From: a virus
Taxonomy: Duplodnaviria; Heunggongvirae; Uroviricota; Caudoviricetes
Direction: 5' to 3' (one strand)
IMG/VR virus record: IMGVR_UViG_3300031417_000379
Length of the DNA stretch: 64,000 nucleotides
Position numbers and translations under genes: made by a program. Below, piece by piece: positions 3,069-63,558 of the stretch (positions are counted from its first letter, which is position 1; each line of letters begins with the position of its first letter). The notes beneath the pieces are model-generated. The model was not told the DNA's origin and did not search any database. It was given only the letters and a program-made list of their open reading frames with translations.

Positions 3069-3118
3069 TTAGACTGCTAGGGGGTGGCGCTTTTTACAGC
3101 GTTCGCCTCTCATGCAGC

Positions 3119-3301: not shown

Positions 3302-3436
3302 GAATGCCTCCTTCTAACCTTGGATCGGGGCGGCCACCTTAGGCCGTCGTTGTTGGTAGCTAATATCAAGCGGAGTCGGTTGTTAGCCGCAGTTTCCATA
3401 AAGGAGCCTGAACTCTAGGTTTGAGTTTCCTGCTTC

Positions 3437-7486: not shown

Positions 7487-8096
7487 CTACCTCCAGTATC
7501 ATAAGTTGAGCTTCGATGTGATCGAAAGCTGAGTGGAAGGTTTCAAGCACCTGGCGATGTGATCCGTTGCCGTGGTTAGTCACGAGCTCATCCAGCTCGT
7601 TAATAGTCTCGAGAAGTCGTTCAAAGTGAATCTCGCTTGCCGTCCGGGCTCCCCAGATTGGAGTGAGTTCTCGTCGCATATCGCTGAAGATAACGTCAAG
7701 CCGATCACTAAAGACGTAGCTTGTAGGCGGAATCACGCCCGACCCGAGATTGGTCCAGAGCTGGTCCACCGCGTAGCCCAACGGGTCCTTAAGTAGAACG
7801 AGCGCTCCCCAGCGAGCCTCGATGAAATCAAACTCATCAAGAAGCTCGTGAACGCTCTCGACGAACTGAGCGTCCTCTTTGCGCTTGCGGCTTTGAGAAT
7901 AAAACTGAAGTGCTTCACGCAGCTGTTCAAAAGTCAGCAAGAAACTGTGAGCATCACCGATGTGGTTATACTTTCGGAGTGCCTCGAGCTCAACGCTGAG
8001 CTTTGGGACTGTGCTGCTCACAACAGCGTTCACCTCTACGAGGAACGTGTCCGTAGCCTTTTCACGGCTAAGTAAGCTCTTGCTATACCACTTCAC
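7476..8096 (-). CDS. tandem-array protein E
   Basis: 206 aa; 31-bp gap to the upstream member. Confidence 0.8.
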   Translation of the reverse strand: MKWYSKSLLSREKATDTFLVEVNAVVSSTVPKLSVELEALRKYNHIGDAHSFLLTFEQLREALQFYSQSRKRKEDAQFVESVHELLDEFDFIEARWGALVLLKDPLGYAVDQLWTNLGSGVIPPTSYVFSDRLDVIFSDMRRELTPIWGARTASEIHFERLLETINELDELVTNHGNGSHRQVLETFHSAFDHIEAQLMILEVVDA

Positions 8097-8127
8097 TTAT
8101 TCATAGTACGCCTGAGCTAGCCGTCTG

Positions 8128-8733
8128 TCAATAGAGCCCGACCATCATGGCCTCGACCTCGAGCTTCTGTATAGAGTCAAGATGTTCATCACGAAGACTT
8201 GTGTGGAGGGTCGGAGCTTGAACCTGATCGTGGATCGTGTAGTTCAAATTGATGAAGTCTCTTAAAAGTCCCTCGTCTATCTCGCGAGCTTTCAGAAGCT
8301 CAAGCGCGCAGTCCTCCAGATCTTCGTAAAGCGCACGTCTTTCCGGCGGAAGCGCCTCCGCAGTGCGGAGAAAATCAGCGCTTAGAGCTAGCATCGCCTG
8401 GCGTCCAGCTATTTCGATGTAAAGCTTAAGCTTCGGGTTGTAGTACCAGCGCGCTAATACGTCCTCGCACTGCTTTAGAATTGGGCGTGCTATCTTCGTG
8501 TACTCCTGCGCTCGCAGAGGTGAATCTTTTACCATGCGTCCGGAGTAAGAGGCTTCACGAGTGAACTGCTCGAACAGTTCTAGGAATTCACTGTGCTCGC
8601 TATCACTGTCGTTGAATAACTTGCCAGATTCAATGAGAAAGGTGTCAACTAGGGAGTATACTCTGGGCGGCATTGCTGTACGCTTAAGTTTCTGAGCCGC
8701 GGCCATAGCTGCGGTTGCTCGTGTTTGGATCAT
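8128..8733 (-). CDS. tandem-array protein F
   Basis: 201 aa; coupled. Confidence 0.8.
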   Translation of the reverse strand: MIQTRATAAMAAAQKLKRTAMPPRVYSLVDTFLIESGKLFNDSDSEHSEFLELFEQFTREASYSGRMVKDSPLRAQEYTKIARPILKQCEDVLARWYYNPKLKLYIEIAGRQAMLALSADFLRTAEALPPERRALYEDLEDCALELLKAREIDEGLLRDFINLNYTIHDQVQAPTLHTSLRDEHLDSIQKLEVEAMMVGLY

Positions 8734-9347
8734 GTTTGAGCTTCCTCTTGTTCAGCGTAGAGATCGGAAAGGACCGAAGCGACCTCAAAGTTTTCGAGCA
8801 GCTTATCAAGCTTTTTAGCTAAGTCCGACGGATAAATCGAGTCCTCAGCTTCATGCTTGATCGCGCGGAGAAGCACAAGCGTTCGCTCTGCTGAGACCCC
8901 AAGAGAGTCAGTTCGTAGACTCCAATAGGCGGTTGACTCGAAGTCTTGATGATAGACTGTGATAGCCTGTCTGCTCACTTGAAACTGTCTTAGCAGATCT
9001 TCGAGCGCCGTCACCACTGTTTCAACGGCCTGTCGGTACTCTGGGGGCTTACTCACTCGAGTGAGCAGCATTTCAAGCTGATCTCGGTATTCGTAAGCAG
9101 GGAAGTAGCTGTAGCTTTGGGCGTCCTCGAGCCACTCTCTATCGCTACTGAGAACAGCTATGAGATCGCGCATCATGGTGATGAGCTCAGCCTCTTTTTT
9201 GGGCAAGCTCGACTTATTCTCCCTGTAGCTTGAGAGTGCGCGCTTTGCTAAAAACTCGATATCGAGATGAGTAAAGGCCCGAGCGTCTCGAGAGATACTC
9301 GTCAACACGTTTGCCACTTCCTCGTCAAGACTCCTATAGTAGAGCAT
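8730..9347 (-). CDS. tandem-array protein G (start chosen at internal ATG 9345-9347 with gaggag RBS; longest ORF extends to 9440)
   Basis: The longest ORF would overlap upstream gene H by ~100 nt; the internal Met preceded by GAGGAG gives a 205-aa product and a 14-nt overlap. Confidence 0.7.
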   Translation of the reverse strand: MLYYRSLDEEVANVLTSISRDARAFTHLDIEFLAKRALSSYRENKSSLPKKEAELITMMRDLIAVLSSDREWLEDAQSYSYFPAYEYRDQLEMLLTRVSKPPEYRQAVETVVTALEDLLRQFQVSRQAITVYHQDFESTAYWSLRTDSLGVSAERTLVLLRAIKHEAEDSIYPSDLAKKLDKLLENFEVASVLSDLYAEQEEAQT

Positions 9348-9903
9348 CGATACTCTCCTCACGCTTACTAGCGTAAAACTCTGGATAGTAGCCAATTCTG
9401 GTGACGAGCTTTTGAGCTTCGATAATAGCTTTATAGACATTGAGGCTATTGATCTGAGAAAGACGATTCGAGTTAAATAGGTCCAATGTTAAGTAGTAAG
9501 TGGACGCGAACGCGCTCAGCAATTTTAGCTCATCCAGGTTAAGCGAAGAACTCCTCGTTTCAAGCTCCTCTACCACGGAATAAAGTAGGTTGAGCATCGC
9601 TTCAACTTCTTTGCGAACATCTTCTTGCTTTCCCCAGTAATTCCAGAGCTTGACAGCTTCATCAAAACGATCGCTAGCAATAGCCGAACCTTGTGGCTTG
9701 AGAGCTAGAGTCTTGAAGTGCTTCTTGAGCACCGCTAGATGCATCTGGATAAGCTCACTTTGAGCGATTGGATCGCTGCTGAGATAACCTTTCAGAACGG
9801 TTGCAGAGTAGTACGCATCGTTTGATAGCTCTTTGCTACCGTCGCCACAAATCACCTCATTTAAGAAGCGTAGAGTCAACGTCCTTCTATCGCGGTAGAT
9901 CAT
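9334..9903 (-). CDS. tandem-array protein H
   Basis: 189 aa; coupled to I. Confidence 0.75.
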   Translation of the reverse strand: MIYRDRRTLTLRFLNEVICGDGSKELSNDAYYSATVLKGYLSSDPIAQSELIQMHLAVLKKHFKTLALKPQGSAIASDRFDEAVKLWNYWGKQEDVRKEVEAMLNLLYSVVEELETRSSSLNLDELKLLSAFASTYYLTLDLFNSNRLSQINSLNVYKAIIEAQKLVTRIGYYPEFYASKREESIDALL

Positions 9904-10514
9904 AGGAGCGTCTCGAGAGTGATCGCTGTCTCAAAGTCCTCAATAGCCTCTTCAAGCGCATCCATTCGTGCGTTGGCTAACACGTCGTTGGGAAAGCTCT
10001 TGCACAATGCTACTACGTTCTCTTTGAATAGGCCTGCTAGCTCATAAGCAGCTTCTTCGTCAAGGCTCTCTGAAGCGTAGAATCGCTCGATGGCCGGTTG
10101 AAGAATGGCCTTACGCGGCTGAAACAGCTCGGCTGTTGCACTGCTTCTGTCGACTGTAGTTCTCGTGAGCTCCATAACTCTTTCAAGCTTGAGCTTGAGC
10201 TGCGGCCTGTGAACAAAACGAGCTACGGTTGCGTCAGTGTAAGGCACGATCCAGGATACGAAAAGCTCTAAGACTTGGCGCTTCATCGGTAAACGAACCG
10301 AACGAATTACCTGCTTAAGCGTCGGCTCAACATTCCTAAGTGTGGCTAAAAGAGGCGGATTACCCTTAGCTCTACCCTCGGTACTACTACAGTAGTAATG
10401 GAGCTCATTGCCGAGCTCAAGAAGCTTTGGGACTTTCTGATGACGCCCGATTGTCCGAAGCTGATCAGCAATCTCAATCGCAGAGTTATAGCGTGTCAGG
10501 TAAAACCTATCCAT
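9900..10514 (-). CDS. tandem-array protein I
   Basis: 204 aa; shares motif VPKLLELGNELHYY with J (LAKLSKLGGQLHGF) and K (LPKLLEVGSTLDAQY), supporting paralogy. Confidence 0.8.
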   Translation of the reverse strand: MDRFYLTRYNSAIEIADQLRTIGRHQKVPKLLELGNELHYYCSSTEGRAKGNPPLLATLRNVEPTLKQVIRSVRLPMKRQVLELFVSWIVPYTDATVARFVHRPQLKLKLERVMELTRTTVDRSSATAELFQPRKAILQPAIERFYASESLDEEAAYELAGLFKENVVALCKSFPNDVLANARMDALEEAIEDFETAITLETLL

Positions 10515-11103
10515 TGGTTACCTCGTGCATGAGCGTAAGTACCTCAAGTCGCTCAATACCAGCCTCAAGCTTCGGCTTGAGCTCGCGATTAGAGCCGGTG
10601 TCAGCGGCGAAAGCCTGCACCTCGCACGCAAGCTCCAGGAACTTGGAAAGAGCCTCGCCGGTGAGTGATTCTCCGCCAAGAATAGAGATAACGATGGCCT
10701 CTATAGCAACGTAGCTGTCTGATCGCTCCTGACTCCACTGGTAACCCAACTTGTAGAGACAATCCATGACCTCGCTCACAGCTGCCTTTGTCTGTGGCTC
10801 AACAGTGAGTCGATTGTAGAGCGATGTCACAGCAACTTCGGCTTCGTTGCGGTAAGCCTTGAGCCGTTCTCTCTTATCATCGTTACGCACGTGCCTAATG
10901 TGACCGTCGATCACCGGAAGAAGAGTTGGCAGTAGTTTGATGGCGCCCAACCGGTGCGGCTCACTAAGCTCACTCCGGTATGAAAATCCGTGGAGTTGGC
11001 CTCCGAGCTTTGAAAGCTTAGCAAGCCCAAGCCTTGAGCCGGTACGCTGAGCCGTGATTGCAAGATCCAACAGCTCTTTCACCGCCGGCATGTACTTGAT
11101 CAC
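10507..11103 (-). CDS. tandem-array protein J
   Basis: 198 aa; paralog motif as above. Confidence 0.8.
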   Translation of the reverse strand: MIKYMPAVKELLDLAITAQRTGSRLGLAKLSKLGGQLHGFSYRSELSEPHRLGAIKLLPTLLPVIDGHIRHVRNDDKRERLKAYRNEAEVAVTSLYNRLTVEPQTKAAVSEVMDCLYKLGYQWSQERSDSYVAIEAIVISILGGESLTGEALSKFLELACEVQAFAADTGSNRELKPKLEAGIERLEVLTLMHEVTNG

Positions 11104-11267
11104 TAAGGTCTCCTCTAAGCTTTTGCCGATCTTATCATGAGAAAGTTAGGTTGGCAATCGGTAACAAACGCTCTAGATGACAGTTTAAGCGTTTGTAAAG
11201 CTAGGATGACAGGTTGTACGGCTCTTCGCCAATCTACTGTTAGCGACTGATCTCGTCACTTAGAAGC
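11104..11267. promoter_or_regulatory. 164-bp intergenic region inside the array with a 9-bp inverted repeat and gatgacag direct repeats
   Basis: acaaacgct(11164-11172)/agcgtttgt(11188-11196) inverted repeat; gatgacag at 11176-11183 and 11205-11212; the only sizeable gap in the 12-gene array, so a candidate internal promoter/operator. Confidence 0.35.
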
Positions 11268-11915
11268 TTAATTATCTGTCACCGCGAAGTCGAGTTCAAT
11301 CTGAAGCTCTGCTTCTGCTAGAGCGACTTCCATTCGTGAGGCGGCTACAACGCTATCCTGCTCTATCTGAGCCACCATAAGCTCGCCTAGCTCAAAGAAA
11401 CGGCTGAGTGATTCGATTTTCAACTCTCTGCTATCTACCAAGGCAAAAGCTTCCTCGCGAAAAGCATTCTCCACTGCTACTCGAGCTGAACGTCGATGCT
11501 TTCGCCTGTCAACGTTCGCGTCGATGGCTCTGAGCGGCTTCAAAAGTATGGCTTTGCGCGTAAACTGCGAAGTAAAGCGTTCGTAGCTATCAGTAGCAAG
11601 CGGTTCGGCTAGTGCTCGAAGATTTAATAGCGTCTCTCTCGTTTCGTCCTTCTTGAGACGAGAGTACTGTGCGTCTAAAGTTGAACCTACTTCCAGAAGT
11701 TTAGGTAAGCTCTCAGGTTCAAGCTTTCCTTTCCAAAGCCGTTGGCTGTTTGGAAGACTGAAAGCCAATGACATGATACTGGAGAGCTTGTGTTTTACCC
11801 CGTAGTTGTAGAACAAAGCCCGGACTGTCTGCATTCTTACGTGAGCGTTCTCAAGCTCAATCTCCCGAGTGCTCCAAGGGAGTGCCTTGTAGAGCAACGA
11901 ACCCTCAATAGCCAC
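11268..11915 (-). CDS. tandem-array protein K
   Basis: 215 aa; paralog motif shared with I and J. Confidence 0.8.
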   Translation of the reverse strand: MAIEGSLLYKALPWSTREIELENAHVRMQTVRALFYNYGVKHKLSSIMSLAFSLPNSQRLWKGKLEPESLPKLLEVGSTLDAQYSRLKKDETRETLLNLRALAEPLATDSYERFTSQFTRKAILLKPLRAIDANVDRRKHRRSARVAVENAFREEAFALVDSRELKIESLSRFFELGELMVAQIEQDSVVAASRMEVALAEAELQIELDFAVTDN

Positions 11916-12572
11916 TTACAGAACCCCGGTCTGTCGCATAAGAAGAGCAACCTCAAGTTCGTCTTCAGCATCTTTCGGTAGAGCAACCTGCACGCCGAGT
12001 AACTGAAGCTTCGTAATGAGCGCTTCAGCAGCCTTGTGATACTTATCTAGAGTATTGAACGTCACAGTACGGGAGCTCATAACATTCGTAAGCTGGCCAA
12101 CAAGGTTGAACTCTTCAGTTTCAGTTTGCTTACGCTTTGAGAATGCTGCTCTAAGTTGCTCGTTGACACTGTGGTGCAGCTTTAACACCACTGTTTTGAT
12201 TTGTGTGTCACTACTAAGAATCTCAGTGAGGTCAGCAGCAAGTGGCAGCGCAACCGCCTCGAACTCCGCAAAGTCAGCCTTGCGTTCTTCTGAACGGAGT
12301 CGCTTTCTCTGAGCTTCAAGCTTCTGAGCTAGCTCTTTGAGTCCGAGGAATCGGTCACTGGTGTAGAAGTCTGAGCGAATCTTAAGCATGTTGGGAAGGC
12401 AGCGGCCTTGACGAAGCACTATAGATAACCCGCTTGCATGCCCGTAGTCTTGCAGTAGGTAAGTAAGTGTATCGAGCTTCTTATCGAAGGTCCAACCTGA
12501 AAAGTGCTTTGCAGATTTTAGGCGGCGGTAGTAGCTTTGATGTCTCAAAACTCGTCTCTGCGCGGCGTGCAT
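11916..12572 (-). CDS. tandem-array protein L (first member; ATGA overlap with the SNF2 helicase stop)
   Basis: 218 aa; start codon 12570-12572 overlaps the helicase TGA at 12572-12574. Confidence 0.8.
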   Translation of the reverse strand: MHAAQRRVLRHQSYYRRLKSAKHFSGWTFDKKLDTLTYLLQDYGHASGLSIVLRQGRCLPNMLKIRSDFYTSDRFLGLKELAQKLEAQRKRLRSEERKADFAEFEAVALPLAADLTEILSSDTQIKTVVLKLHHSVNEQLRAAFSKRKQTETEEFNLVGQLTNVMSSRTVTFNTLDKYHKAAEALITKLQLLGVQVALPKDAEDELEVALLMRQTGVL

Positions 12573-26434: not shown

Positions 26435-29400
26435 TCACTCCCCGTTAGATGGGTTATCAGCCTGCGGTCCCGGCAGGCCTCCGCCTGGACGGGTAGGAAT
26501 ACCCCCGCCAGGTCTCGGGGCCGGCGGTGTTGACGGCGGTGTGTCATTGAAAGTCGGAGTTGTCGGAGCAGCCGGCGCCTCAGGCGCAAGCCTTACTAGA
26601 TTCCTGATCTGTTCTTCGATCTTTCGCGCAATAGCGTTAGTACCAGCACCGCTGTTTCGAGCGTTCTTAGCTGTCGACTTAATTAGCTCCTGGTACTTTG
26701 CGATCTCCTTAGCCTGTTCAGTAGTCTGCGGAGCCGCCTTTGCGAGTTCGTTAGCCATATCGACTAGCTTATCGAGACTCTGGTTAATAGCAAAGTCCTC
26801 AGACGTCTTCGGCTTCTTTACCATCGGAGCATCGTCTGCTGTCAAGACGCTTTGGCTGCGAGCGATTCCGGCTTGAACACGCTCGTTATCCTTGATAGCC
26901 TTCTCGTGGTCTTTAGCAGCAGATTGAGCGTCACGAGTTGCATCCTTGACATCACGACGAGCCTCGCGCGACTCACGACGAGCCTCGTCAGCCTCCACTC
27001 GCATCTTGTCAAGCGCCTCCTGAGCTCGAGTCTCGGCTTCCTTAGCTGCCGCATCGCGGGCTATGGCGCCGAGGCTCGAAGAGAGCTTAGTCTCTAGACG
27101 CTGTCGAGCGTTCTCATACATTTCCGGAGTGATTTCCTTGCCTGGCTCAGGAGCGTTCATGCGCTTTTCAAGCTGCTCGAGCTGGCCTCTGGTTTCACGA
27201 ACCACATCGTCCTGACCTCGAGCGTATTCAGCTCTCATTGCCGAGTCGCTCTGTGCAAGTCGAAGCTGTTCTACTGCGGCTCTAACAGCTCGATCAGTGA
27301 GCTCGATGTTGTTATTAGCCTCACCTCTAGCCGTCTTAGCACTGTCCTGAGCCTGTGTAGCAGCTGCGTTACGGGCTTCGGCAGCCTGACGAGTAGCGTT
27401 TGTCTCCGGGAGACGCTCATCGAGAGTCATGCCGGTACGCGATACCGAAGCTGTTTCACGCATTGCGGCAGCGGCACGCTCACGCAGCGTCGGAGCCGAA
27501 GCTTCTGTAGCTTCAAGTCCGTCTGCCTGCTTGAACGCGGTGGAGACGCCCTTACCGATTTCCTGCGCCTCATCCATAGCCTTACGGTTGTCTCTACCCG
27601 TCGGAAGCTTTCCAGGGCCGAGGTCCTGCATCTGCTGGAACATCTTGTCAGCGGTCGCGCGGTTACCGGCAGCCGCAGCCTCAGCAGTACGAGCACGGGT
27701 TCGTGCAGCCTCAGCCTCAGAATCGAGCGAGGACGCCTTCTCCTGTACAACCTGAGTGTTAATTCGCATCTCACCTGCAGCCTCGGTAGCGCGAGTAACA
27801 CCGTTCTCAGCCATAGTGATTCGGATGTCTGCGTTATCCAGATCACGACCGGCGTTCATAGCCTGCTTGTTCGCGTCGAGAACAGCGTTCTCGTTGAACT
27901 TCTGGATAGTGCCGTCATCGTTTACGAACTGCGGGTCGAGACGCTTCTCATTGTTAAGCTTAGCGTTGTAAGCGCTCTCTTCACGCTTCCAGTCCTTGAG
28001 CTTTTCAGGAGTGTTCGTGGCGCCGTTGTAGATCTGACCAGCCTGAACCTTAGCATCGTCACGCTGTTTCTCAAGGCGAACGAGGTTAACCGTATCTCCT
28101 CGAGCTCCAGCAAGCTTCGCCTGAAGACCAAGAGCCTGTACATCGGCCATAAGCTTCTTGAAATCGCTCATGTCCTTACCGAAGGTTCCGTCGGCCAAGC
28201 CGCTTTCGGCTACGGCTTTCTCAAGCTCTGTATGAACAGCTGCTTTAGTGGATTCCGTGTCAAGCTTTAGATCAGCGTCAGCGGCTACATTCTCAAGGCG
28301 CTGTTTGTCTAGGTTAGCATCACGAAGTTCACTTTGAGCTTCTCCGATACCGTTAACCGCTTTATCTTGATCAGCGCGTGCAGTCGCTAGATCGTTATCA
28401 GAGAAAGCCTGAGCCGCCTTGGCGCTGTTGTCTGCATCACGATCAAGTGCAGTTGCTGTGCTTTCTGAGCGCTTTGCAGTGTCTCCAGCACGAGTAGCCT
28501 CGCGGTTAAAGTCAGTCATGTTGTCGCGCTTCTGTCGTTCAGTAGCCTGAGCAGTACGCCCGACGAGACCAGGAGCGGAGCGGAGTTCGTTCTGTGCAGC
28601 GATAGCAGCACCCTGACCCATCTTGCTAATTCCACCTGCAGCGAAACCACCAAGCGCACCGCCAACAATGGAGCTAGGCATCTTAGCAGCCTTGTCGCCC
28701 AGTTGTCGAGCACTTGCACCCATCATGGGGATCTTCTGGTCAAGCACGTTAGCCATACGCTCTCCACCGAGGTTCACACGACTGAAGGTCTCAACGATTT
28801 CCTTACGGTACATCCAGAGGACCATCGAGAGGATACCGACAAAGAGCAGAGCAGACATAGGATCAGCCGCACCGAGAACGGCGCTATAAAGAGCAAGCGA
28901 GACGAGCAAGAAGATGGCTGAAGCCAGGTACTTCAAGATCGAAGCTAGAATTGTCTCAAGCCAGCCGAGCATGATCTTCTTTCCCCGGGTCGGGTGCATA
29001 CCCACCAGGATGAAGAGCGGGGCGAAGATCATAAGAATCACTGCAGTGAGGTAGTACATGAGAGCAGTGATGGCTACAACCGAGATGAGGATTCCACCAA
29101 GGATGGTTGAGACAACAGCAACGATACCCTGAGCGAACTGCTGGCCACCGTTACTCCAGATCGGCCACATCTTGTCGCTAGAAGCGACTGTGGTGATCAG
29201 GTTGTACCAAGCTGGGTCAAACTGCGTTGGAGTGTTGCTCGTTGTCTGTCCCGCCGGAGTGACCTTCATTTGCATGAGCATGTTGTAGACAGCAAGGTTA
29301 CAAACCTTGGAGCCTCCGGACTTAGACTCAAGCCACTTACCATCGTAGCCGTTCGCGCTACCGGTGGTCTGTAGGGAGTAGCAGAACTTATTCGGGTCAA

Positions 29401-30670
29401 CGCCGGATTTTGCTACGGCCTTCCCGGCGACAGTGTCAGCGTTCTTTACCTCAAGCTGGTCAAGATTAGTGCCGAAAGCGCCCTTAGCGTAGTTCTGTAG
29501 GATAAAGGTCTTCCAAATGGTGCAACCCATGCTATTGACTGCTAGCCCGGTGAGCTGATCCGCTGTTGCACCACTAGCATCTGATACGCAGACACCCTTG
29601 TCAGCGGTTAGGGCCACGCCATCAGATGTCTTGGTTCCGAAGCCCGCTCCGCTAAAGCAGTTAGCTCCGTTAAACGCTCCGATCACACAGCCACTTACTG
29701 TGTTCGAGGCCACCATCGGTGCTTTCGCGAGCATGCTTGGGTTAAGGAGTACGGCTAAGCCGATGATGAACGATACCGCGAGCCAAACGGCCTGACCAAG
29801 CGCATCACGGAAGCGTCGCTTAACAACACCGGTGTAGAGCACGCCGAGCGCAGTCACCATGACAACAATGAGCACGAGTGGCTTATAGATGCTGTTGGTA
29901 AGCGAACCGATGAGGCCGGTGTCGCTAGTGTTCGGAGTACCACCGATGATACGAACTAGATCAATACAGCCGTCTGCTGCCGGAGTATTCGGATCACAGA
30001 TGAATGAAGAGTTAAAAGCGTTGGTGGCTAGCCAGGTAACAGTTGTCTGGATAGCGTTAGCAGCTCCGAGCCCAATCCCGTTAGCCACGTTAGTGACGAA
30101 AGTCTGCTCCCAGAAGCAAGTACCGGTGTTGCGCTCGCCGGTGAGCTTATCCTTGATGTCTCCCCAGTTAGTTTTGTAGGTCTGAGGAAGAATGCCGGCG
30201 GTACTGTCGGACGATCCCTTACCGGTGCCGTCGTCAAGAGCCTTACCAGCGAGCCCATTCTGATTGAGCACATCAGCGTACGGCTTCACGAAGAAGTCTG
30301 ACTCAGGGCCTGGCCCAATGCCGGTGTAGTTTGTCCACGCAGGAGCACCGACTACTTCGTTGATGGTGAACGTGCGGCCCTTAAGCTCCGGATAAAGCTT
30401 TCCGCCCCAGGTGCCGGCACCCCAGGGGCCACGTTCGTCCATGTTTCCGCCGATAACGGTGGTACAGCTCATGCCGAGGCCCGCGCTAGCGGTGGTTACG
30501 TGCTTCGTACTGCTAGCATCGATAGCCAGCGCACCGGCGCCGATACCGATGAGTACCGTCGCTACGGCCGCTAACGCTGCTATAGACGAAGTGAGCCTTG
30601 TCTTGAGGCTTCTGACGCGCGTCCTGTCGGTTGCACCGATGTAGTTGGCGCCTTTGGTTCGAAGCTTCAA
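26435..30670 (-). CDS. 1411-aa polytopic membrane protein (VirB6/TrbL-like, tentative) with ~750-aa coiled-coil and Pro-rich C-terminal tail
   Basis: Signal-like N-terminus, many TM helices in the first ~640 aa, then long A/R/D/E-rich coiled-coil; immediately upstream of the CHAP/transglycosylase gene (Tn916 orf15-orf14-like pairing); a tape-measure role cannot be excluded. Confidence 0.8.
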   Translation of the reverse strand: MKLRTKGANYIGATDRTRVRSLKTRLTSSIAALAAVATVLIGIGAGALAIDASSTKHVTTASAGLGMSCTTVIGGNMDERGPWGAGTWGGKLYPELKGRTFTINEVVGAPAWTNYTGIGPGPESDFFVKPYADVLNQNGLAGKALDDGTGKGSSDSTAGILPQTYKTNWGDIKDKLTGERNTGTCFWEQTFVTNVANGIGLGAANAIQTTVTWLATNAFNSSFICDPNTPAADGCIDLVRIIGGTPNTSDTGLIGSLTNSIYKPLVLIVVMVTALGVLYTGVVKRRFRDALGQAVWLAVSFIIGLAVLLNPSMLAKAPMVASNTVSGCVIGAFNGANCFSGAGFGTKTSDGVALTADKGVCVSDASGATADQLTGLAVNSMGCTIWKTFILQNYAKGAFGTNLDQLEVKNADTVAGKAVAKSGVDPNKFCYSLQTTGSANGYDGKWLESKSGGSKVCNLAVYNMLMQMKVTPAGQTTSNTPTQFDPAWYNLITTVASSDKMWPIWSNGGQQFAQGIVAVVSTILGGILISVVAITALMYYLTAVILMIFAPLFILVGMHPTRGKKIMLGWLETILASILKYLASAIFLLVSLALYSAVLGAADPMSALLFVGILSMVLWMYRKEIVETFSRVNLGGERMANVLDQKIPMMGASARQLGDKAAKMPSSIVGGALGGFAAGGISKMGQGAAIAAQNELRSAPGLVGRTAQATERQKRDNMTDFNREATRAGDTAKRSESTATALDRDADNSAKAAQAFSDNDLATARADQDKAVNGIGEAQSELRDANLDKQRLENVAADADLKLDTESTKAAVHTELEKAVAESGLADGTFGKDMSDFKKLMADVQALGLQAKLAGARGDTVNLVRLEKQRDDAKVQAGQIYNGATNTPEKLKDWKREESAYNAKLNNEKRLDPQFVNDDGTIQKFNENAVLDANKQAMNAGRDLDNADIRITMAENGVTRATEAAGEMRINTQVVQEKASSLDSEAEAARTRARTAEAAAAGNRATADKMFQQMQDLGPGKLPTGRDNRKAMDEAQEIGKGVSTAFKQADGLEATEASAPTLRERAAAAMRETASVSRTGMTLDERLPETNATRQAAEARNAAATQAQDSAKTARGEANNNIELTDRAVRAAVEQLRLAQSDSAMRAEYARGQDDVVRETRGQLEQLEKRMNAPEPGKEITPEMYENARQRLETKLSSSLGAIARDAAAKEAETRAQEALDKMRVEADEARRESREARRDVKDATRDAQSAAKDHEKAIKDNERVQAGIARSQSVLTADDAPMVKKPKTSEDFAINQSLDKLVDMANELAKAAPQTTEQAKEIAKYQELIKSTAKNARNSGAGTNAIARKIEEQIRNLVRLAPEAPAAPTTPTFNDTPPSTPPAPRPGGGIPTRPGGGLPGPQADNPSNGE

Positions 30671-39102: not shown

Positions 39103-41679
39103 TCAAAGCTCAGGTAGACTCATGTCTCCAATATTCGGAAGTGATGCATCTGCAGGCTTTTTCTGTTGCGGCGCAGTTGGAATACCCGTAGGGCGAGTGG
39201 GAAGACCGACTCGCTTTGGAGCGCCTGACTGTGAGCTTTGAGCAGGGCTAGGAGGCTGCACCAGCGGCTTAGACGGCGCGGGAGCCGCCGCAGGTGTCGT
39301 CCCAAATAGTGAGTCGAGACCGTCGCTATCTGTCAGCTCTGGCTTTTTCTGCGGGCTCTTTGGACCTACAGGCTTACGAAGCGGAGGAGTCGGCGCCGGT
39401 GCCGCACCGCTAAAGATAGAGCTTAAGGTCTCCGGCTTGTGCTCCTCATCTTCTGACTCGAGTAATTCAGCCGGCGCCTCAGTCATGATCCATTCGTCGT
39501 CTTCCTCGTGATAAGTCGAGAAATCATCCTCTTCGGCGTTACGAGCCGGGAAGTTGAACATCTGGCGCTCTTCTTCGGGATCGAACTCATCAAAGTTCAC
39601 GTCTGCTACTGCCTGCTGACGAGTGTAATCGTGCTCAAGGGCTGTAGACGAATCTTTAGCCTTCTCAACTGCCGGCTTAGGGCGGCGCGCGAGTTCTTTC
39701 TGAGCGCCACTGTAATAGTCAGCGAGCACCGCCACCGGAGGAACCATCCAAACAGAGCGTGCAAGTGCTCCGCCCCCGCGCTTAGAGTACTTCGGATCTG
39801 CCGTTGTCTTCGTAACCCAAACAGCTGATGACTTGAAGCCGTTCACCGGGTCTGGCGAGGAAAGCTTCATGAACTCTGACGGTGGGTAAACCCAACGCTC
39901 TTCCTCACGCGCGGCCACCCGGCTGTCCATGCTTCGTGAACGATTGTAGCTCAGGAATGAGCTGTCGTTCTCATTAGTTCTTGAGTAAACCGTGACAAAG
40001 TGTTTTCCAAGAAGCTTTGAGAGGCGTGTAGCTGAGTCCTCTGTTGAGCCGGCGTGAGCGATGAAGTTACCACAGGTGTCAAGGATAGAGTTAAGGTATG
40101 ACTCCCCAGCTTTCTCAGCTGAGGCTACCACCTGATCGAAAGACTGCTGAGCAATGGTCATGGCCATCTTTGACTCACGTGACTTCTCGAGAAGCGCTGT
40201 AACTGCATCCGGCGGGACCGCCTGGAATTCGTCAACGTAGATGCTTACTTCGTTGTCTGCCTGAGCGTTACGACGAAGAGCTGAGATGTTCGTGAGATCC
40301 GAGAAGATCATTGATCCCACGTACTGAGCGAACTCCGGCTCCGAGTCAGAGTTGAGAGAGAACATAATGACGTTTCCCGGCTGCTTGGTGAGCTCGAAGA
40401 GATCAATCTCTCGATCTCCAGGAGCGTTGCCGGTTCTCATCCAACGGCCGTACTCCGAAGCTGTGATGGTTCGCATCTGGCCTTGGAGCTCAGTGTAGGC
40501 TTGAGTAAGAGCGCCTTTAGACTTAAGCGCCTCACCAATCTCGATAGCGTTCTTTGCGACCGGTGAGTTGACCGGCACTGATTTCCGGACATCGTTGATT
40601 CCACCTTCGCCTACCGGAGTGTAGGTGTACTTGAAAGTTTCGGGGAAGCGCTTGTCATCCGAGTTAGCGTCAACAAGTTCGTTCATGCCGTTGCCGGAAA
40701 CAGCTGAAGCTAACTGAGCTATGCCACCGTGATCCCAGTCGATGCTTCGAGCAATTTCACGGTTTCCGTACTTGAACATGGCAAAAGTTACCTGGAGTAA
40801 CTGCTGCATGGCTGTCTTGTAGACTGCAGCAGCGCTGTCATACTCGCGCATACCGAGAACCATGTCAGCTTTAGACGTAGGAGTACCCGAGCGTAGGGGA
40901 TCGTAGTAGCACTGCCCCTTCGAGCGGGGGATGTCGTAGTCCTCTGGATCGCCGTTGACAAAGTGGTAGAACTCTCTGCCGTTCTCTTCGGCGAACGCAG
41001 CAGCCATAGCTGCGAACTTCGGCGAACGCTTAAAGTCGATGACCACTACGGTCTTGCCCATTTCAATGTCAGAGTGCATGAGACTCTGCATGGTGATACT
41101 CTTACCGGAACCGGTCTGGCCGGTAATGAACGTATGCTTAGCCGCCTCTGTAGAGTAGCGCGAAACCACCTCATCAGTTTTCTCGTCAATTCCCATAGGA
41201 GAGCGCTTCACAGTGGTAAGAAGGCCGTTTTTGAGCTTCTGAATGTTCTTTTTGCGCTCGAGAATCTGTAGAGGCGTACGGCGGTAAGAGAACCTATAGC
41301 GCCATGAGCCTTCTAGCTGAGTTAGGTACGGGTTACGCTTTAGTCGACGAGCTTCTAACCAAACAAAGCCGTACCCGGTCGGTGCACCTAGTACGACACT
41401 AAGTCCAATCCATGCTGGAATTAGCGACGGTAGATACTTGGTGAAGTTTGATAGATCACCGAAGAGCTGTGAAAGTCCGCTTACTCCAATACCAAGAGTT
41501 ATGAGCCCAATAATCCCCACCGCGGCGGCGACCGCGCTGACCACCGTCGGACGATTCCGGTGGTAGCGGAATAGATACCAGAGTGAGTACGCGACGATGG
41601 CACCGGGGAGGAAAACCAGCCCCAGAACGATTAGAATCGGCCACGGAGAACTCTGCTTGGCGTCTTCATCATCGGCCAT
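39103..41679 (-). CDS. FtsK/TraG/VirD4-like coupling-type ATPase with 3 N-terminal TM helices and a Pro-rich C-terminal tail
   Basis: Walker A FITGQTGSGKS (~aa 190) after N-terminal TM helices; Walker B-like IYVDEFQAV; 858 aa. Confidence 0.75.
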   Translation of the reverse strand: MADDEDAKQSSPWPILIVLGLVFLPGAIVAYSLWYLFRYHRNRPTVVSAVAAAVGIIGLITLGIGVSGLSQLFGDLSNFTKYLPSLIPAWIGLSVVLGAPTGYGFVWLEARRLKRNPYLTQLEGSWRYRFSYRRTPLQILERKKNIQKLKNGLLTTVKRSPMGIDEKTDEVVSRYSTEAAKHTFITGQTGSGKSITMQSLMHSDIEMGKTVVVIDFKRSPKFAAMAAAFAEENGREFYHFVNGDPEDYDIPRSKGQCYYDPLRSGTPTSKADMVLGMREYDSAAAVYKTAMQQLLQVTFAMFKYGNREIARSIDWDHGGIAQLASAVSGNGMNELVDANSDDKRFPETFKYTYTPVGEGGINDVRKSVPVNSPVAKNAIEIGEALKSKGALTQAYTELQGQMRTITASEYGRWMRTGNAPGDREIDLFELTKQPGNVIMFSLNSDSEPEFAQYVGSMIFSDLTNISALRRNAQADNEVSIYVDEFQAVPPDAVTALLEKSRESKMAMTIAQQSFDQVVASAEKAGESYLNSILDTCGNFIAHAGSTEDSATRLSKLLGKHFVTVYSRTNENDSSFLSYNRSRSMDSRVAAREEERWVYPPSEFMKLSSPDPVNGFKSSAVWVTKTTADPKYSKRGGGALARSVWMVPPVAVLADYYSGAQKELARRPKPAVEKAKDSSTALEHDYTRQQAVADVNFDEFDPEEERQMFNFPARNAEEDDFSTYHEEDDEWIMTEAPAELLESEDEEHKPETLSSIFSGAAPAPTPPLRKPVGPKSPQKKPELTDSDGLDSLFGTTPAAAPAPSKPLVQPPSPAQSSQSGAPKRVGLPTRPTGIPTAPQQKKPADASLPNIGDMSLPEL

Positions 41680-46846: not shown

Positions 46847-47116
46847 TCAGTTCTCTCGCTTGAGGGCTCGTACGAAGTCCCCAATCTCCTGGTGAGAGTA
46901 TCCCGCATCGGACGCCTCAAGCAGTAGATTTACCACCGAAAGCTCCTGGAACTCATCCGAATCAGCTCCACGCTTAATGTCTTCAAGCGCTTTAGTGATG
47001 GCCTGGATAAACAGTGTATCTAGTCCAGTACGAGTATCCAGTGGATCCAGAACCTCAGCAGCTCGCCTCTGGATTTCGAGAAGGAGCTGGCTTAGGGTGG
47101 AGAGCTGTGAAGCCAT
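46847..47116 (-). CDS. hypothetical small protein
   Basis: 89-aa ORF. Confidence 0.5.
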   Translation of the reverse strand: MASQLSTLSQLLLEIQRRAAEVLDPLDTRTGLDTLFIQAITKALEDIKRGADSDEFQELSVVNLLLEASDAGYSHQEIGDFVRALKREN

Positions 47117-47128
47117 AGAGAGTAACTC

Positions 47129-48355
47129 CTACTTAGTAACGCCGGCGAGCATCGGGCGGAACTGCACCCAATCCTCAGAGAAGTTCGACTTAAGCTGGTC
47201 CGAAGCGGTGACAATTCCTTCTGCGGTCGGCGCCACATCGTGATAGAACACATCAGACGCGATAGCCTGGTGCTCGAACGGCGAATAGTGCTTTAGCTTG
47301 AGAAGGCGTTCTCCTAGCTCCGAAGTTCCGGTAGAGCGAACAGACTTCGACTTGTCGTTATAGGAGACCTGAGCCGCCTCCGCAGAAGACTGTAGCAGAA
47401 TCGGACGAAGATCCTCAAAGTTGTGTGACTCCGGAATCGTCTTTCGGTCAACGAACGGAGCGTGGATCCAGCTATCAGTAGGAGCCGATACCTTGAGACC
47501 TTCGCGGATTAGTACTGCGATGGCCTTGATCTCAGGCTGAGCCTCTTCAGCGTCACGAAGCTCAAGCATGTTCCCCCAGTATGAAGAGGTGATGACTTCT
47601 TCGAACTCGGTGTGAGCCTCAATAAGCCGGTTGAAGTTCTGCTTGTGAGCGGAAAGGTAACCCTCCTTAGGATTACCCTCGCTGTCGTAGCCGTTCGCGT
47701 AGTAGTCGTCTAGAAGCTCCTGGTAAGAAGCAGCTACCTCGGTGTCGGTCTTCCCTTCCCGAATGCGCGGGTGGATAAGCATCGACAGAACCGAAGTCAC
47801 ATCCTTGTCGCGCGCTAGGAGCCATTCCTTAGTGAGCGCCTCACGAGTCTCAGGGTCAGCGAACTTCCCGCCCATACCCTTCTGGTTGACGGTGAAGAGC
47901 GGGATCACCGGCGTCTCCATCACATCGCGCAGTGTCGCCTTTACAGAGCGGGCACGTGACGATGCAGCGTTACGCGAGATCACACGGTGACGGAGGAACT
48001 CAGCGTGTACGTAGCGTGGATAACGAGCTACAAAAGTGGTGAGGCGACGGCCACCGCGTACGAATGCTGAGTCAGCAAAGTTACCCTCATGCTCCGTAAG
48101 AGTCGGGGCGCCGTGGTGAGTGTCAGCGATCACAAGAAGCGAATAGTTCTTCAGCATCGGATCGTTGTAGCTGAGCTTGAGAACCTTCTCTTCCTGGAAC
48201 GGAAGGCTGACTTCCTCGATGACCACCGAGGTGAAGTCTGGTTCGTACATGCGTTTCTCTCTTCCTGAAGTCTTCATCGTTGCTGGGGCGGGTTCTAGGG
48301 AGAAAGAGCTCTCACCCTCGCTGCGCGGGGAGTCAGCGAGGGTGAGAGAGACCAT
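47129..48355 (-). CDS. ThyX-like (flavin-dependent thymidylate synthase family) protein, divergent and unusually long (tentative)
   Basis: RHRVISRNAAS fits the ThyX RHR-x7-S signature; 408 aa vs ~250 typical. Confidence 0.4.
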   Translation of the reverse strand: MVSLTLADSPRSEGESSFSLEPAPATMKTSGREKRMYEPDFTSVVIEEVSLPFQEEKVLKLSYNDPMLKNYSLLVIADTHHGAPTLTEHEGNFADSAFVRGGRRLTTFVARYPRYVHAEFLRHRVISRNAASSRARSVKATLRDVMETPVIPLFTVNQKGMGGKFADPETREALTKEWLLARDKDVTSVLSMLIHPRIREGKTDTEVAASYQELLDDYYANGYDSEGNPKEGYLSAHKQNFNRLIEAHTEFEEVITSSYWGNMLELRDAEEAQPEIKAIAVLIREGLKVSAPTDSWIHAPFVDRKTIPESHNFEDLRPILLQSSAEAAQVSYNDKSKSVRSTGTSELGERLLKLKHYSPFEHQAIASDVFYHDVAPTAEGIVTASDQLKSNFSEDWVQFRPMLAGVTK

Positions 48356-60149: not shown

Positions 60150-60584
60150 CTAGTCTGCAAAGACAAAGTCGAGATGAAGCCCCTTATCGCCGATGGCGTA
60201 AGGCTTCTCAATGATGATTGCGCCTTGATCCTCGTAGACACGACGAGAGCTTTCCTTGCTAGCGCCGTAGAGAGGGTAGACGTTACGGTCCTTAGCAAAG
60301 TTCACAATGGCTTTAAGGAACTCATCACTTTTACCGCTTCCACGGTGGATCGGATCAATAGCCATCGCCCTTAGTCTCCAGTTGATGTTGTCAGCTCCAA
60401 CTTTCTTCATGTCAGGGACGATGCTCGCGATACCAGCAACTCGGTCATCGTGGACCCAGATAATGTGCTTGGCAGCGTCGGATGTGTCGCCGGTGTAGAG
60501 AGGAGCGTCGTCTGAAAAGCCGAGCCAACGACGACGGTACAGTTGTACCTCGCTGAGTTCGACGGAGAACAGGGCCATAGTCAT
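60150..60584 (-). CDS. GNAT-family N-acetyltransferase
   Basis: Motif A-like RLRAMAIDPIHRGSGKSDEFLKAIVNFA. Confidence 0.7.
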   Translation of the reverse strand: MTMALFSVELSEVQLYRRRWLGFSDDAPLYTGDTSDAAKHIIWVHDDRVAGIASIVPDMKKVGADNINWRLRAMAIDPIHRGSGKSDEFLKAIVNFAKDRNVYPLYGASKESSRRVYEDQGAIIIEKPYAIGDKGLHLDFVFAD

Positions 60585-60627
60585 GGGTCCTATATCAACT
60601 AGCTTTCAGGTATGTTACCATGGCGTT

Positions 60628-60999
60628 ATGACTCACTACCCAGTCGTTCTCATCGATGACCTTCGCTCATTCGTGCAGAAGCGAGACGATGCTCTTGTCC
60701 TGCGTACGCTTGCTGAGGCTCTCTCCTGGTTCACCGATGTGAAGTCCGAGGACACCGTTGGCCAGCTTTGGCTCGACCACGACCTCGGCAAGAACGACAA
60801 GGGCGAAATCATCGAGATCATCCCCTTCGTGGCGGAGCTCGAAGAGCGCGCCTACTTCGGTACTGCGCCGGAGATCGAGCAGGTCATCGTGCACTCGTCG
60901 AACAACCAGCGTGGTCCGAAGATGGTGGTTCCGCTTTCTCGTTACTTCGCGGTGCAGACCATTGCGCAGTCTGAGCTGGACAACTACCTGGTTCAGTAG
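60628..60999 (+). CDS. CPR-like (cyclic-phosphate processing receiver) domain protein (tentative)
   Basis: VVLIDDLRSF...QLWLDHDLGKNDKGE matches the hhLDDxR ... LDHDLG signature of CPR domains; start taken at ATG 60628 because the longer ORF overlaps the divergent GNAT start. Confidence 0.5.
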   Translation: MTHYPVVLIDDLRSFVQKRDDALVLRTLAEALSWFTDVKSEDTVGQLWLDHDLGKNDKGEIIEIIPFVAELEERAYFGTAPEIEQVIVHSSNNQRGPKMVVPLSRYFAVQTIAQSELDNYLVQ

Positions 61000-61060: not shown

Positions 61061-61795
61061 TTACGCAGTCTTACGAGCATCCAGTCGTCGCTCAAGCTCC
61101 GCCATAAAAGTGTGATAGCGATCTGCGTTCTCGAGCTTCTCTCGGATGTATTCTAGCCGACGCCCTACGCTAGAAGCGATGGTCTCTAGCATCTCATCGA
61201 TCGACGTAATCTCTCCGATGTTAGCCTGGTCGTACCTCGAAAGTGTCTGATCATTCTCATAATAGCTCTTTGGGAACACTTCGAAGCGTTGAAGCGTCTC
61301 AAGCTGCGCTTCAGCATCCTCCGGGGTAAAAGCTTGCTGTACGAAATTCGGAAGCTCGTCATACTTTGCGTTGTATTCGTTCACCTGATCGATCCTGTCA
61401 AGCATGGCTCGATAGGCCTTAAGGGCGTCCACCACATCCTTGACAATGAGCCCGCGATTGGACTTGGAAAGCCGTTCATCGTGCTCGAAGACAGCCTTAG
61501 CCACCAGACGAAGCTCAGACGGCGTCCAGCTTCTAGGCTCCTTAGTGAGCACCGGAAGAAGTTCCTCAGCTGATTCAGCCTCATCCTGAAGCTCAAGCTC
61601 TTTAGCAAAATCGATGTTGTAGAACCCGTGCATCGGTCCGGCTTCGAACATCTCATCGATAAACACGTCTACATCGTCACGCGGTGCCCGAGGAACACCG
61701 AAGCGCTCAAGCTTTCGAGCAAGGCTATCGTAAGCACTTCGGGCGTAAACAGCCTCTTCAGTAGCCTCGTAGCGCTTCGAGTAAAGCTCGTTCAT
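61061..61795 (-). CDS. hypothetical protein
   Basis: 244-aa ORF. Confidence 0.7.
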   Translation of the reverse strand: MNELYSKRYEATEEAVYARSAYDSLARKLERFGVPRAPRDDVDVFIDEMFEAGPMHGFYNIDFAKELELQDEAESAEELLPVLTKEPRSWTPSELRLVAKAVFEHDERLSKSNRGLIVKDVVDALKAYRAMLDRIDQVNEYNAKYDELPNFVQQAFTPEDAEAQLETLQRFEVFPKSYYENDQTLSRYDQANIGEITSIDEMLETIASSVGRRLEYIREKLENADRYHTFMAELERRLDARKTA

Positions 61796-62121
61796 AAAGC
61801 TGTTGATGTACTCGAGCGACTTCTGCTTCTCCAGCCCGGTATAGCTTCGGTACTCAAGACTCCGTACGAAGAAAGCGATCTGCTGCTCAAGCGCTTCGTT
61901 CTTCGAGATGTAGCTGAAACCGTACGAGCCGAAATCAAGCTTCTTCGCCAGGTTCTTCGTGAGGGTAAACCCCGGAGCGCCATACTTATCGAAGAACGAA
62001 CTTCGCGCCGTCTCGAGTGATTCATAGTGTATTCGCTATCTCCAAAGAGACAGCTGTCCGGCACTTCGCAAGAGTCGATTTTGCCGGTGAGACTGTTGAC
62101 ATGAAAACTAGCCATGTACAC
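61792..62121 (-). CDS. short HCCH-module protein (degenerate module)
   Basis: SFHVNSLTGKIDSCEVPDSCLFGDSEY...H keeps the H-C-C spacing; 109 aa. Confidence 0.55.
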   Translation of the reverse strand: MYMASFHVNSLTGKIDSCEVPDSCLFGDSEYTMNHSRRREVRSSISMALRGLPSRRTWRRSLISARTVSATSRRTKRLSSRSLSSYGVLSTEAIPGWRSRSRSSTSTAL

Positions 62122-62902: not shown

Positions 62903-63223
62903 TTAGTTCTTCTCGATGTGGTGCTTGCCGGCTAGCGGAAGCTTTCGCAGATACTTCTTAACGGCCTCGTTCGGTACGAACGCGACCGCTGTTAGTTCGT
63001 CCTCCAGGTCGGGCTCACGAAAAACAACGGTGTCGAACCCGTTGTGGTGAGCGTCCTGAAGGAGCGCCTCAAGCGACTCCGTGCAGGGAGTCTGGAGAGA
63101 AACGATAAACTGAGAGGTGCTGTGCCAGTTGGCAAAGCTTTCCCCTCGATGAAGTGCGAAATCAGCAACAGCGTGAGCGATCTGGGCAGTCTGCTGGCCC
63201 GATGAAAGCTTTGCGTGCGTCAC
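62903..63223 (-). CDS. PTH2-like (peptidyl-tRNA hydrolase 2 family) protein (tentative)
   Basis: 106 aa; GQQTAQIAHAVADFAL resembles the PTH2 GK.AAQ..HA motif. Confidence 0.45.
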   Translation of the reverse strand: MTHAKLSSGQQTAQIAHAVADFALHRGESFANWHSTSQFIVSLQTPCTESLEALLQDAHHNGFDTVVFREPDLEDELTAVAFVPNEAVKKYLRKLPLAGKHHIEKN

Positions 63224-63305
63224 TAAGTAGAGGGGATATCCTCGATCAGTCTAGAACATTTCCGTAGTACTCCAATTTCTTGATGGTGAATGATGCGTCA
63301 TATGA

Positions 63306-63378
63306 GGTGCCCCCAGTCAGGATCGAACTGACTCAGTTGGGTTTAGAATCCACCGCTCTACCATTGAGCTATAGGGGC
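63306..63378 (-). tRNA. tRNA gene; anticodon CUA (amber-reading) if the canonical 7-nt loop is used; anticodon stem has two mismatches
   Basis: Reverse complement folds with a perfect 7-bp acceptor stem (one G-U), 4-bp D stem with GG loop, 5-bp T stem with TTCGATC loop, U33 and A37; anticodon stem only 3 WC pairs flanked by G-A and A-C; 3' CC encoded. Confidence 0.55.
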
Positions 63379-63558
63379 GTATGAGAAAACTATATCATAC
63401 TGGCTTCGAGTATGCACCTCGAGCGTAAGATTTTTCTCAGATTTTCTAATTACGACTGTTAAGAGCAAGCCTCAAGACTCCACAGGCTGAGAGTACGAGA
63501 GCTATCAACACAATTACTCGCTATATCCTATCAAAGCTAGTAGCTAGCGCTCTTACTC

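Follow-up and report, generated by a model that had tools for sequence, protein, structure and literature searches.

What does a transfer RNA (tRNA) with an amber anticodon do in an element that ends several of its own genes with TAG? The question is raised by the stretch of DNA analysed here (the window: 64,000 nucleotides of the IMG/VR virus record IMGVR_UViG_3300031417_000379), in which a tRNA gene with the anticodon CUA, which would read UAG, lies on the minus strand at 63306-63378. From the comparison of homologous sequences we consider it probable that this gene encodes a functional amber suppressor on a tRNA-Lys-type body, and that it forms a conserved two-gene module with the gene directly downstream, which encodes a PTH2-like protein and would be gated by an amber codon close to its start.

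A CUA tRNA under selection

ARAGORN finds a single tRNA in the window, with the anticodon CTA, and there is no other in the 64 kb (ARAGORN) or in the 9.2 kb past the window end. The gene comprises 71 nt followed by CC, and it matches Rfam RF00005 over its full length (1-71) with 58.2 bits, the gathering score being 29 (E=5.6e-10). The initial annotation of this locus had described a tRNA with a CUA anticodon, canonical acceptor, D and T arms, and an anticodon stem of only three Watson-Crick pairs flanked by G-A and A-C. The ARAGORN call and the Rfam cloverleaf bear out this description, down to the individual stem pairs. The acceptor stem is GCCCCUA/UGGGGGC with the discriminator A73, the D-arm is GCUC-AAUGGUA-GAGC, the T-arm is GUCAG-UUCGAUC-CUGAC, and the variable loop has 4 nt. 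In the anticodon arm, the strands GUGGA and CCCAA enclose the 7-nt loop UUCUAAA, in which C34-U35-A36 (63346-63344) is preceded by U33 and followed by A37 and A38. The stem consists of G27·A43, U28-A42, G29-C41, G30-C40 and A31·C39; the last of these, between 63349 and 63341, is the non-Watson-Crick pair that closes the stem, and its failure to pair leaves an anticodon loop of effectively 9 nt. At the 3' end, A73-CC is followed by T; the full CCA is not encoded, thus the terminal A has to be added post-transcriptionally.

A promoter-like -10 element, TATGATATAGT, can be read at 63389-63399 on the same strand, ending 11 nt 5' of the tRNA, and may serve its expression. TGATATAGTT is kept upstream of the homologous tRNA of locus L069, and locus L072 carries TTTACA-17-TATGAT; a generic sigma-70 scan did not call the -10-like element before the tRNA.

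The tRNA is identical in 11 near-identical independent assemblies, whose flanks carry single-nucleotide polymorphisms and indels. It was further compared with four diverged homologues that adjoin PTH2-like orthologues (loci L015, L069, L053 and L072). These are 18-30% diverged and retain both the cloverleaf and the CUA anticodon. Across the five tRNAs, the acceptor pair 3:70 is C-G, U-A or A-U, the anticodon-stem pair 28:42 is U-A, C-G or G·U, and several T-stem pairs have changed on both sides, while U33-C-U-A is invariant; the only stem pairs broken in any of the five are 27:43 and 31:39. The tRNA shares 82% identity with that of L015, and the neighbouring sequence 63-84%; since the divergence of the tRNA matches that of its neighbours, the retained structure reflects selection and not a lack of time. 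An unusually fast evolution of the tRNA was also considered and rejected by the same comparison, in which it is the PTH2-like gene that is unusually conserved. The suggestion that the gene might be a pseudo-tRNA or an attachment-site remnant did not hold up: it is full length, it carries compensatory changes, and it lies about 270 kb inside a 740-kb contig, not at an integration junction.

An exact search with the first 24 nt of the tRNA, made in one genome per species, returned 26 loci, comprising 22 tRNA-Lys genes (UUU/CUU), 3 tRNA-Thr genes and 1 truncated gene. The matches come from metagenome-assembled genomes of Patescibacteria and Pirellulaceae, which gives a weak lead to the host, and many of them also share the full acceptor stem, A73 and even the 4-nt variable loop. 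By these similarities the body is of the tRNA-Lys type; the anticodon is CUA and not the UUU or CUU of tRNA-Lys. In the cellular Lys and Thr tRNAs that share the 5' half, 27:43 is often non-Watson-Crick, so that G27·A43 in the window tRNA is ordinary. Position 31:39 behaves differently, being Watson-Crick in all 15 distinct cellular Lys/Thr tRNAs with the same 5' half and mismatched in 5 of 5 tRNAs of the suppressor clade (A·C, A·C, C·A, C·U and C·A); the 31:39 mismatch is thus a conserved derived character. In Escherichia coli, it is mainly LysRS or GlnRS that charges CUA tRNAs with U35 and A73. Because of this established behaviour, the tRNA is predicted to be charged with Lys or, failing that, with Gln.

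An in-frame TAG in the neighbouring PTH2-like gene

The PTH2-like gene (62903-63259, minus strand) has 118 codons including one in-frame TAG. Its start follows the 3' end of the tRNA after a 46-nt spacer (63260-63305), which holds a Shine-Dalgarno (SD)-like GGAG and no terminator. The annotated start, GTG at 63223, gives a protein of 106 aa. In the same frame, an ATG lies at 63259-63257, from which translation reads M-F-TAG-T-D-R-G-Y-P-L-Y-L-V-T-H-A-K. Sequence alignment and the structural model together indicate that this ATG is the true start and that the GTG annotation truncates the gene. Between the TAG and the GTG, the translated residues correspond in the alignment to the conserved N-terminal strand of the homologues, PLY[LIV]VTH or KLY[VI]VVR, and in the AlphaFold model the first strand β1 is formed by L-Y-L-V-T-H (pLDDT 93) and spans the GTG, so that initiation at GTG would cut a core strand. 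The GTG is not conserved, since L069 has GTA at this site; the next canonical start of L054 and L055 comes only after β1 or inside the core, and no canonical start lies between the TAG and β1. From the SD-like GGAG (63273-63270) to the ATG there are 10 nt; the GTG has no SD-like motif closer than 15 nt, and most of the PTH2-like homologues have SD-like motifs ahead of their ATG. Between the window and L069, six codons differ from the ATG to codon 17, five of them only at synonymous sites, and the codon differences among the window, L015 and L069 in this N-terminal stretch are mostly synonymous. The codons ATG-TTC-TAG, with the TAG as codon 3 (63251-63253), are present in all 11 near-identical assemblies. 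The initial annotation had raised the possibility that genes elsewhere in the element carry in-frame TAG. One such codon does exist, nearer than expected, in the gene that starts 46 nt away.

The PTH2 fold of the predicted protein is certain from profile and model comparisons: the protein matches Pfam PF01981 with 29.9 bits (cut-off 23), the family profile matches Pth2 structures in the PDB (E=8e-10), and the top 14 Foldseek hits of the AlphaFold model are all Pth2/Bit1 structures, either archaeal Pth2 or human Bit1, with TM values of 0.67-0.74.

The early TAG is not confined to the window. It occurs in frame at codon 3-8, after the ATG and before β1, in about 16 diverged lineages of 23-64% GC. 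Among contigs these are window/L015, L069, L053, L050, L054, L055, L070/71, L072, L056, L012/13/17, L018 and L058; among published huge phages they are LR756501 (735 kb), LR756504 (636 kb), LR756502 (642 kb) and LR756500 (462 kb). In L053, L018, L058 and L072 the TAG stands at codon 5-8, and the leader that follows it varies in length and sequence, the early TAG alone being conserved. The early stop is always TAG, never TAA or TGA, and thus always the codon that matches the adjacent CUA tRNA. The base 3' of it is a purine in nearly all cases; in E. coli, a purine after TAG is a context that favours suppression. For the database proteins P0004, P0016 and P0008, which carry Q near the N-terminus, a TAG in the DNA was predicted and was found in all three. 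At least nine of the early-TAG lineages have a CUA tRNA no more than 2.5 kb away (the window, L015, L069, L053, L072, L056, L018, LR756501 and LR756500), and in L070/71 the 3' end of a cut tRNA directly precedes the PTH2-like gene.

Several further observations concern the same family. The N-termini of the database proteins P0001, P0002, P0005, P0010 and P0021, and of P0004, P0008 and P0016, are systematically miscalled, either by truncation to an internal V or M (MVRGDL..., MSAGYQ..., MAHAVA...) or by reading TAG as Q on single short contigs. Standard gene callers thus systematically truncate this family or miss its start, and searches for the targets of suppressor tRNAs should include the sequence upstream of annotated starts and not only the sequence past the stops. 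In LR756501, the largest published phage, a second TAG stands in frame in the PTH2-like gene at about codon 33 (L063 4001-4100), and two tandem CUA tRNAs lie 2 kb downstream of the gene in a local 8 kb of otherwise standard code; the first of them is most similar to phage tRNA-Lys and tRNA-Arg genes. The cultured-phage member of the family, gp84 of Mycobacterium phage Myrna, has GTG-TAG directly before its annotated GTG start (L062 2965-2980).

Homologues that do not carry the early TAG are also associated with tRNAs, namely those of L016 and L020 (CUA tRNAs), LR745208 (a UUA tRNA), L019 and L021 (odd tRNAs) and Myrna (gp84, in a tRNA cluster). In the 485-kb phage LR745208, the UUA tRNA, an ochre suppressor, follows a PTH2-like gene with no in-frame stop by about 100 nt (L067 4399-4475); an ochre analogue of the module was looked for there and no in-frame TAA with an upstream start was found. 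Odd tRNAs lie immediately beside the PTH2-like genes of other giant contigs, at L019 9721-9894, L021 9891-9970, L020 668-985 and L056 6314-6389, with anticodons called as AUG, AGG and AAU. The L021 tRNA has a 9-nt anticodon loop and that of L019 may hold an insert, and the CUA tRNA of L056 has the T-loop AGAGUGG and a D-loop without GG.

Probable amber suppression under a standard code

The window itself fits the standard code. TAG is an ordinary stop, ending 14 of the 67 well-supported genes (21%) in a non-overlapping set of open reading frames (ORFs). The coding density, 92.1% with the standard code, rises only to 93.1% if TAG is taken as sense, and related loci are similar. An initial concern had been that an active suppressor would read through genes that end in TAG, for example at 2445 and 3119. 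The example at 2445 is correct. That at 3119 is a 60-aa ORF nested in another frame of the gene 3094-3399 and is not credible. The concern as such is valid, and read-through would add a median of 6.5 codons after TAG (14 genes) versus 7.5 after TGA, with two long cases. Programmed C-terminal read-through was considered and rejected, as the TAG extensions are short and similar to those after TGA.

A scan for early in-frame TAG with an upstream start found none in the other genes of the window and of the 9.6 kb upstream (about 80 genes), which together make up roughly 74 of the 740 kb of the element. Thus, there is one client codon in about 74 kb, and it stands in the gene that adjoins the tRNA. 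Patterns such as ATG-x-TAA arise by chance, so an ATG-x-stop pattern alone is not evidence. No release-factor or aminoacyl-tRNA synthetase (aaRS) domain is present among the Pfam hits of the window.

Two other genes were noted during the scan. The gene at 47129-48355 (minus strand) ends with TAG, and an ORF of 89 aa (46847-47116) follows in the same frame four codons later, so that amber suppression would yield a fusion of about 502 aa. The two genes are probably distinct, because the TAG lies within TAGGAG, which would provide the SD sequence for the downstream ATG (AGGAG-ATG). An open extension of 80 codons upstream of the gene at 61061-61795 is explained by a 1-nt deletion relative to L003 and L004, and not by a TAG. 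The 244-aa gene called there corresponds to the C-terminal portion of a longer gene, which L003 and L004 carry intact with 351 aa. The frame is shifted both in the window and in L002 by the deletion near 62020 (within 61061-62121, minus strand), GCGAAT-ACAC versus GCGAATCACAC, which is either a true pseudogene mutation or an assembly error.

We propose the following course of events. The tRNA would probably be driven by its own promoter-like, TGATATAGT-like -10 element and possibly lies on one transcript with the PTH2-like mRNA, since no terminator separates the two genes. A CCA-adding enzyme would complete the tRNA, and a cellular synthetase would charge it, most likely with Lys and otherwise with Gln. 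Ribosomes would initiate the PTH2-like gene at the ATG at 63259 and reach the UAG at codon 3, where two outcomes may compete: termination by release factor 1 would yield only a dipeptide, and decoding by the suppressor tRNA would yield the complete PTH2-fold protein. The output of the PTH2-like gene would thereby be gated by suppressor activity and would report on it. Suppression is presumably partial, TAG being a normal stop elsewhere in the roughly 74 kb, and the conserved 31:39 mismatch may keep it weak, which would explain how TAG stops at 21% of the genes are tolerated. On this reading, the tRNA is most likely an active, and probably weak, Lys-type amber suppressor with the neighbouring gene as its conserved local client. 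An earlier suggestion, that it is a regulated or conditional suppressor, is compatible with this.

The purpose of such gating can be approached by speculation. The PTH2-like enzyme may remove the peptidyl-tRNA or blocked aminoacyl-tRNA that builds up through stop-codon read-through, serve against tRNA-directed toxins of the host, or exert negative feedback by acting on the suppressor. Tentatively, and with less than even expectation of being right, we raise the possibility of a self-regulating module that is widespread in standard-code huge phages and giant elements, in which the enzyme is made in proportion to suppressor activity and acts on suppressor-derived peptidyl- or N-blocked aminoacyl-tRNA, the 31:39 mismatch tuning the tRNA. 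If true, such a module would set a low level of read-through or cope with its by-products, and it would be a natural gene switch based on an amber codon, explaining 'orphan' suppressor tRNAs in standard-code phages.

Several facts weigh against a functional suppressor that gates its neighbour. TAG is not avoided as a stop in the window, which would make efficient suppression costly. Of the two mismatches in the anticodon stem, A31·C39 could hamper decoding. No CUA tRNA is found within 4-10 kb in four of the early-TAG lineages (L012/L013/L017, L058, LR756504 and LR756502); conversely, the PTH2-like genes of L016 and L020 adjoin CUA tRNAs and have no early TAG. As to the putative enzyme, the catalytic Lys of Pth2 (GK motif) is replaced by L, Q or Y in the aligned subfamily; in the same alignment, DAG has become EPD, with a 4-residue deletion. 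Finally, the standard-code jumbo phage XacN1 has a canonical PTH2 (ORF295) that lacks the early TAG, thus the pairing of tRNA and PTH2 does not explain XacN1 or every such case.

Among other explanations, the most serious is that the suppressor mainly serves a block-wise recoding of TAG in many genes (e.g., late or structural genes) elsewhere in the 740-kb element, on the pattern of Lak and crAss-like phages, the PTH2-like gene being one recoded gene of many that is nearby by chance. Recoded phages do keep standard-code regions that carry suppressor tRNAs (Borges et al.), about 74 of the 740 kb was examined, and the second in-frame TAG of the LR756501 gene points the same way. We nevertheless regard this as unlikely, because the other genes examined, about 80, contain no in-frame TAG, TAG is a common stop (21%) at a GC content of 53%, unlike in the TAG-depleted, low-GC relatives of recoded phages, and RF2 and aaRS 'code-change' genes are absent from the window. 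Moreover, lineages with a standard local code agree in the position of the TAG (codon 3-8) in a leader that varies in length, which suggests a gene-specific device and not drift. One could also regard ATG-NNN-TAG as a separate two-codon minigene or leader that regulates the PTH2-like gene without any read-through, the tRNA being unrelated; the model would be the bar minigenes of phage lambda, which load peptidyl-tRNA hydrolase. The leader is exactly ATG, one codon and TAG with an SD sequence in many lineages, and minigenes have a link to Pth biology. Yet this is improbable on several grounds: all TAG-bearing lineages examined have the leader ATG in the reading frame of the enzyme; the conserved β1 (pLDDT above 90), which is structurally required, lies between the TAG and any canonical start, so that re-initiation would truncate the proteins of the window, L054, L055 and L069; four lineages have the TAG at codon 5-8; and the stop is without exception the one read by the adjacent CUA tRNA, not TAA or TGA.

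The remaining explanations concern the tRNA alone. It could be a non-functional relic (a pseudo-tRNA or integration remnant), or a non-decoding decoy for host tRNA nucleases or modification enzymes. The two anticodon-stem mismatches and the missing terminal A would suit a relic, and the RNA-repair-rich neighbourhood (Thg1, PNKP, 2H, cREC and RNase T) makes decoys conceivable. Against both stand the compensatory substitutions in three stems, with CUA invariant in the five diverged homologues, the ordinary occurrence of G27·A43-type mismatches in cellular tRNA-Lys of the same type, and a complete gene about 270 kb inside the contig with its own codon in frame in the next gene; we consider a relic or decoy very improbable. 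A pyrrolysine tRNA, the label given by ARAGORN, has a negligible probability. It shares the CUA anticodon, but ARAGORN gives the label 'tRNA-Pyl' to any CUA tRNA. The hallmarks of tRNA-Pyl are a short D-loop without GG, a 3-nt variable loop, a 6-bp anticodon stem and a single base between the acceptor and D stems. The tRNA of the window has instead a canonical 7-nt D-loop with GG and the canonical T-loop UUCGAUC; its anticodon stem has 5 bp, its variable loop 4 nt, and the acceptor and D stems are separated by two nt. No domain of Pyl biosynthesis or PylS is found among the window Pfam hits.

The surrounding element and comparison with known systems

The window corresponds to positions 206,812-270,811 of the 740,336-bp metagenomic contig ERZ27247408 k141_1142885, with zero mismatches over an 11,098-nt overlap. 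Nearly all its genes lie on the minus strand, and the GC content is about 53%. They include a 1411-aa TrbL/VirB6-like protein, an 858-aa TraG/TrwB-type coupling ATPase, and NikA-like and TadE-like proteins (conjugation-type genes at 26435-30670, 39103-41679 and others), as well as DnaG primase, Prim-Pol, SNF2 helicase, PhoH-PIN, a sigma-70 factor, ThyX and GmrSD. Most proteins of the window match no family. The ~200-aa genes at 5018-12572 were suspected to be paralogues, which BLASTP does not support. Neither the phage nor the plasmid collection contains a megablast match to the window; the T4CP-like protein has distant plasmid hits only and no phage hit, DnaG has distant hits only, and no clear phage structural gene is present in the window. 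The conjugation-type genes co-occur here with a tRNA/PTH2-like module that is otherwise carried by IMG/VR viral contigs and published huge phages. The element may be either a huge phage or a giant conjugative plasmid.

Near the tRNA, there is a cREC receiver domain (60583-60999, plus strand) and a GNAT acetyltransferase (60150-60584, minus strand). Beyond the window end (L002 1-9622) follow genes for a Thg1-like protein, PNKP (kinase and HAD), a 2H-SAK phosphoesterase, an R2K ATP-grasp protein, an RNase T-like protein and a YqaJ-RNase T protein. With these RNA-repair genes around it, the tRNA is part of a tRNA/RNA-repair island within a giant mobile element. Thg1 also occurs near the PTH2-like/tRNA-CUA pair in L056, and an RNA ligase and a class IIb aaRS are encoded near the PTH2-like gene of L058.

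Suppressor tRNAs with Lys-type features have a precedent in E. coli. Nonsense suppressors derived from tRNA-Lys (supG) and the mischarging of tRNAs with a CUA anticodon (the amber suppressor series of Normanly, Kleina, Abelson and Miller) are known there. The Lys-type body, A73 and U35 are shared with the present tRNA, and amber suppressors that have such features typically receive Lys or Gln. Unlike them, the tRNA described here is natural, element-encoded and conserved, and it carries a 31:39 mismatch that is absent from cellular tRNA-Lys. The bar minigenes of phage lambda resemble the start of the PTH2-like gene in that an SD sequence, ATG, one codon and a stop are tied to the biology of peptidyl-tRNA hydrolase. 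Here, in contrast, the mini-ORF shares the frame of the hydrolase-like gene and continues into it, and its stop is always one that the adjacent tRNA reads.

PTH2 proteins are common in jumbo phages (Iyer et al. 2021, PMC7824862), where they have the same fold and are often encoded near tRNA or RNA-repair genes, Myrna gp84 lying inside a tRNA cluster. The present subfamily differs from them by the changes of GK to G-L/Q/Y and of DAG to EPD; a further difference is the early amber codon conserved in it, of which the survey makes no mention. That phages carry suppressor tRNAs is already known, also from jumbo-phage surveys. In a literature search that was incomplete, so that a prior description is possible, we found no account of a PTH2 gene with an amber codon near its beginning, of gene-specific gating by an early TAG or of this tRNA-enzyme module.

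Phage suppressor tRNAs are usually explained by the wholesale recoding of late genes. In recoded phages, the suppressor tRNAs sit in standard-code DNA while the late genes are recoded (Borges et al.). The Lak megaphages, crAss-like phages and other gut phages that use code 15 are like the element described here in having a CUA tRNA in standard-code DNA and TAG inside coding sequence. Unlike them, the element shows, in the part in view, neither a recoded gene block nor a higher coding density with TAG as sense; TAG stops are not depleted there, an RF2/aaRS module is absent, the GC content is 53%, and a single codon is recoded, at the N-terminus of a tRNA-adjacent gene family.

The closest parallel is XacN1, a large standard-code jumbo phage with two CUA tRNAs, tRNA-repair genes and a PTH2, in which the targets of the suppressors were not found by reading past C-terminal stops and were reported as unknown (PMC5852040). 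In the element described here, by contrast, a concrete target can be named, a single codon very near the beginning of the adjacent gene for a tRNA-related enzyme. Its conservation spans 23 to 64% GC and extends to the largest phage genomes published. This provides a testable natural case of amber-codon gating of a single gene, in which a conserved mismatch in the anticodon stem may tune the strength of the suppressor.

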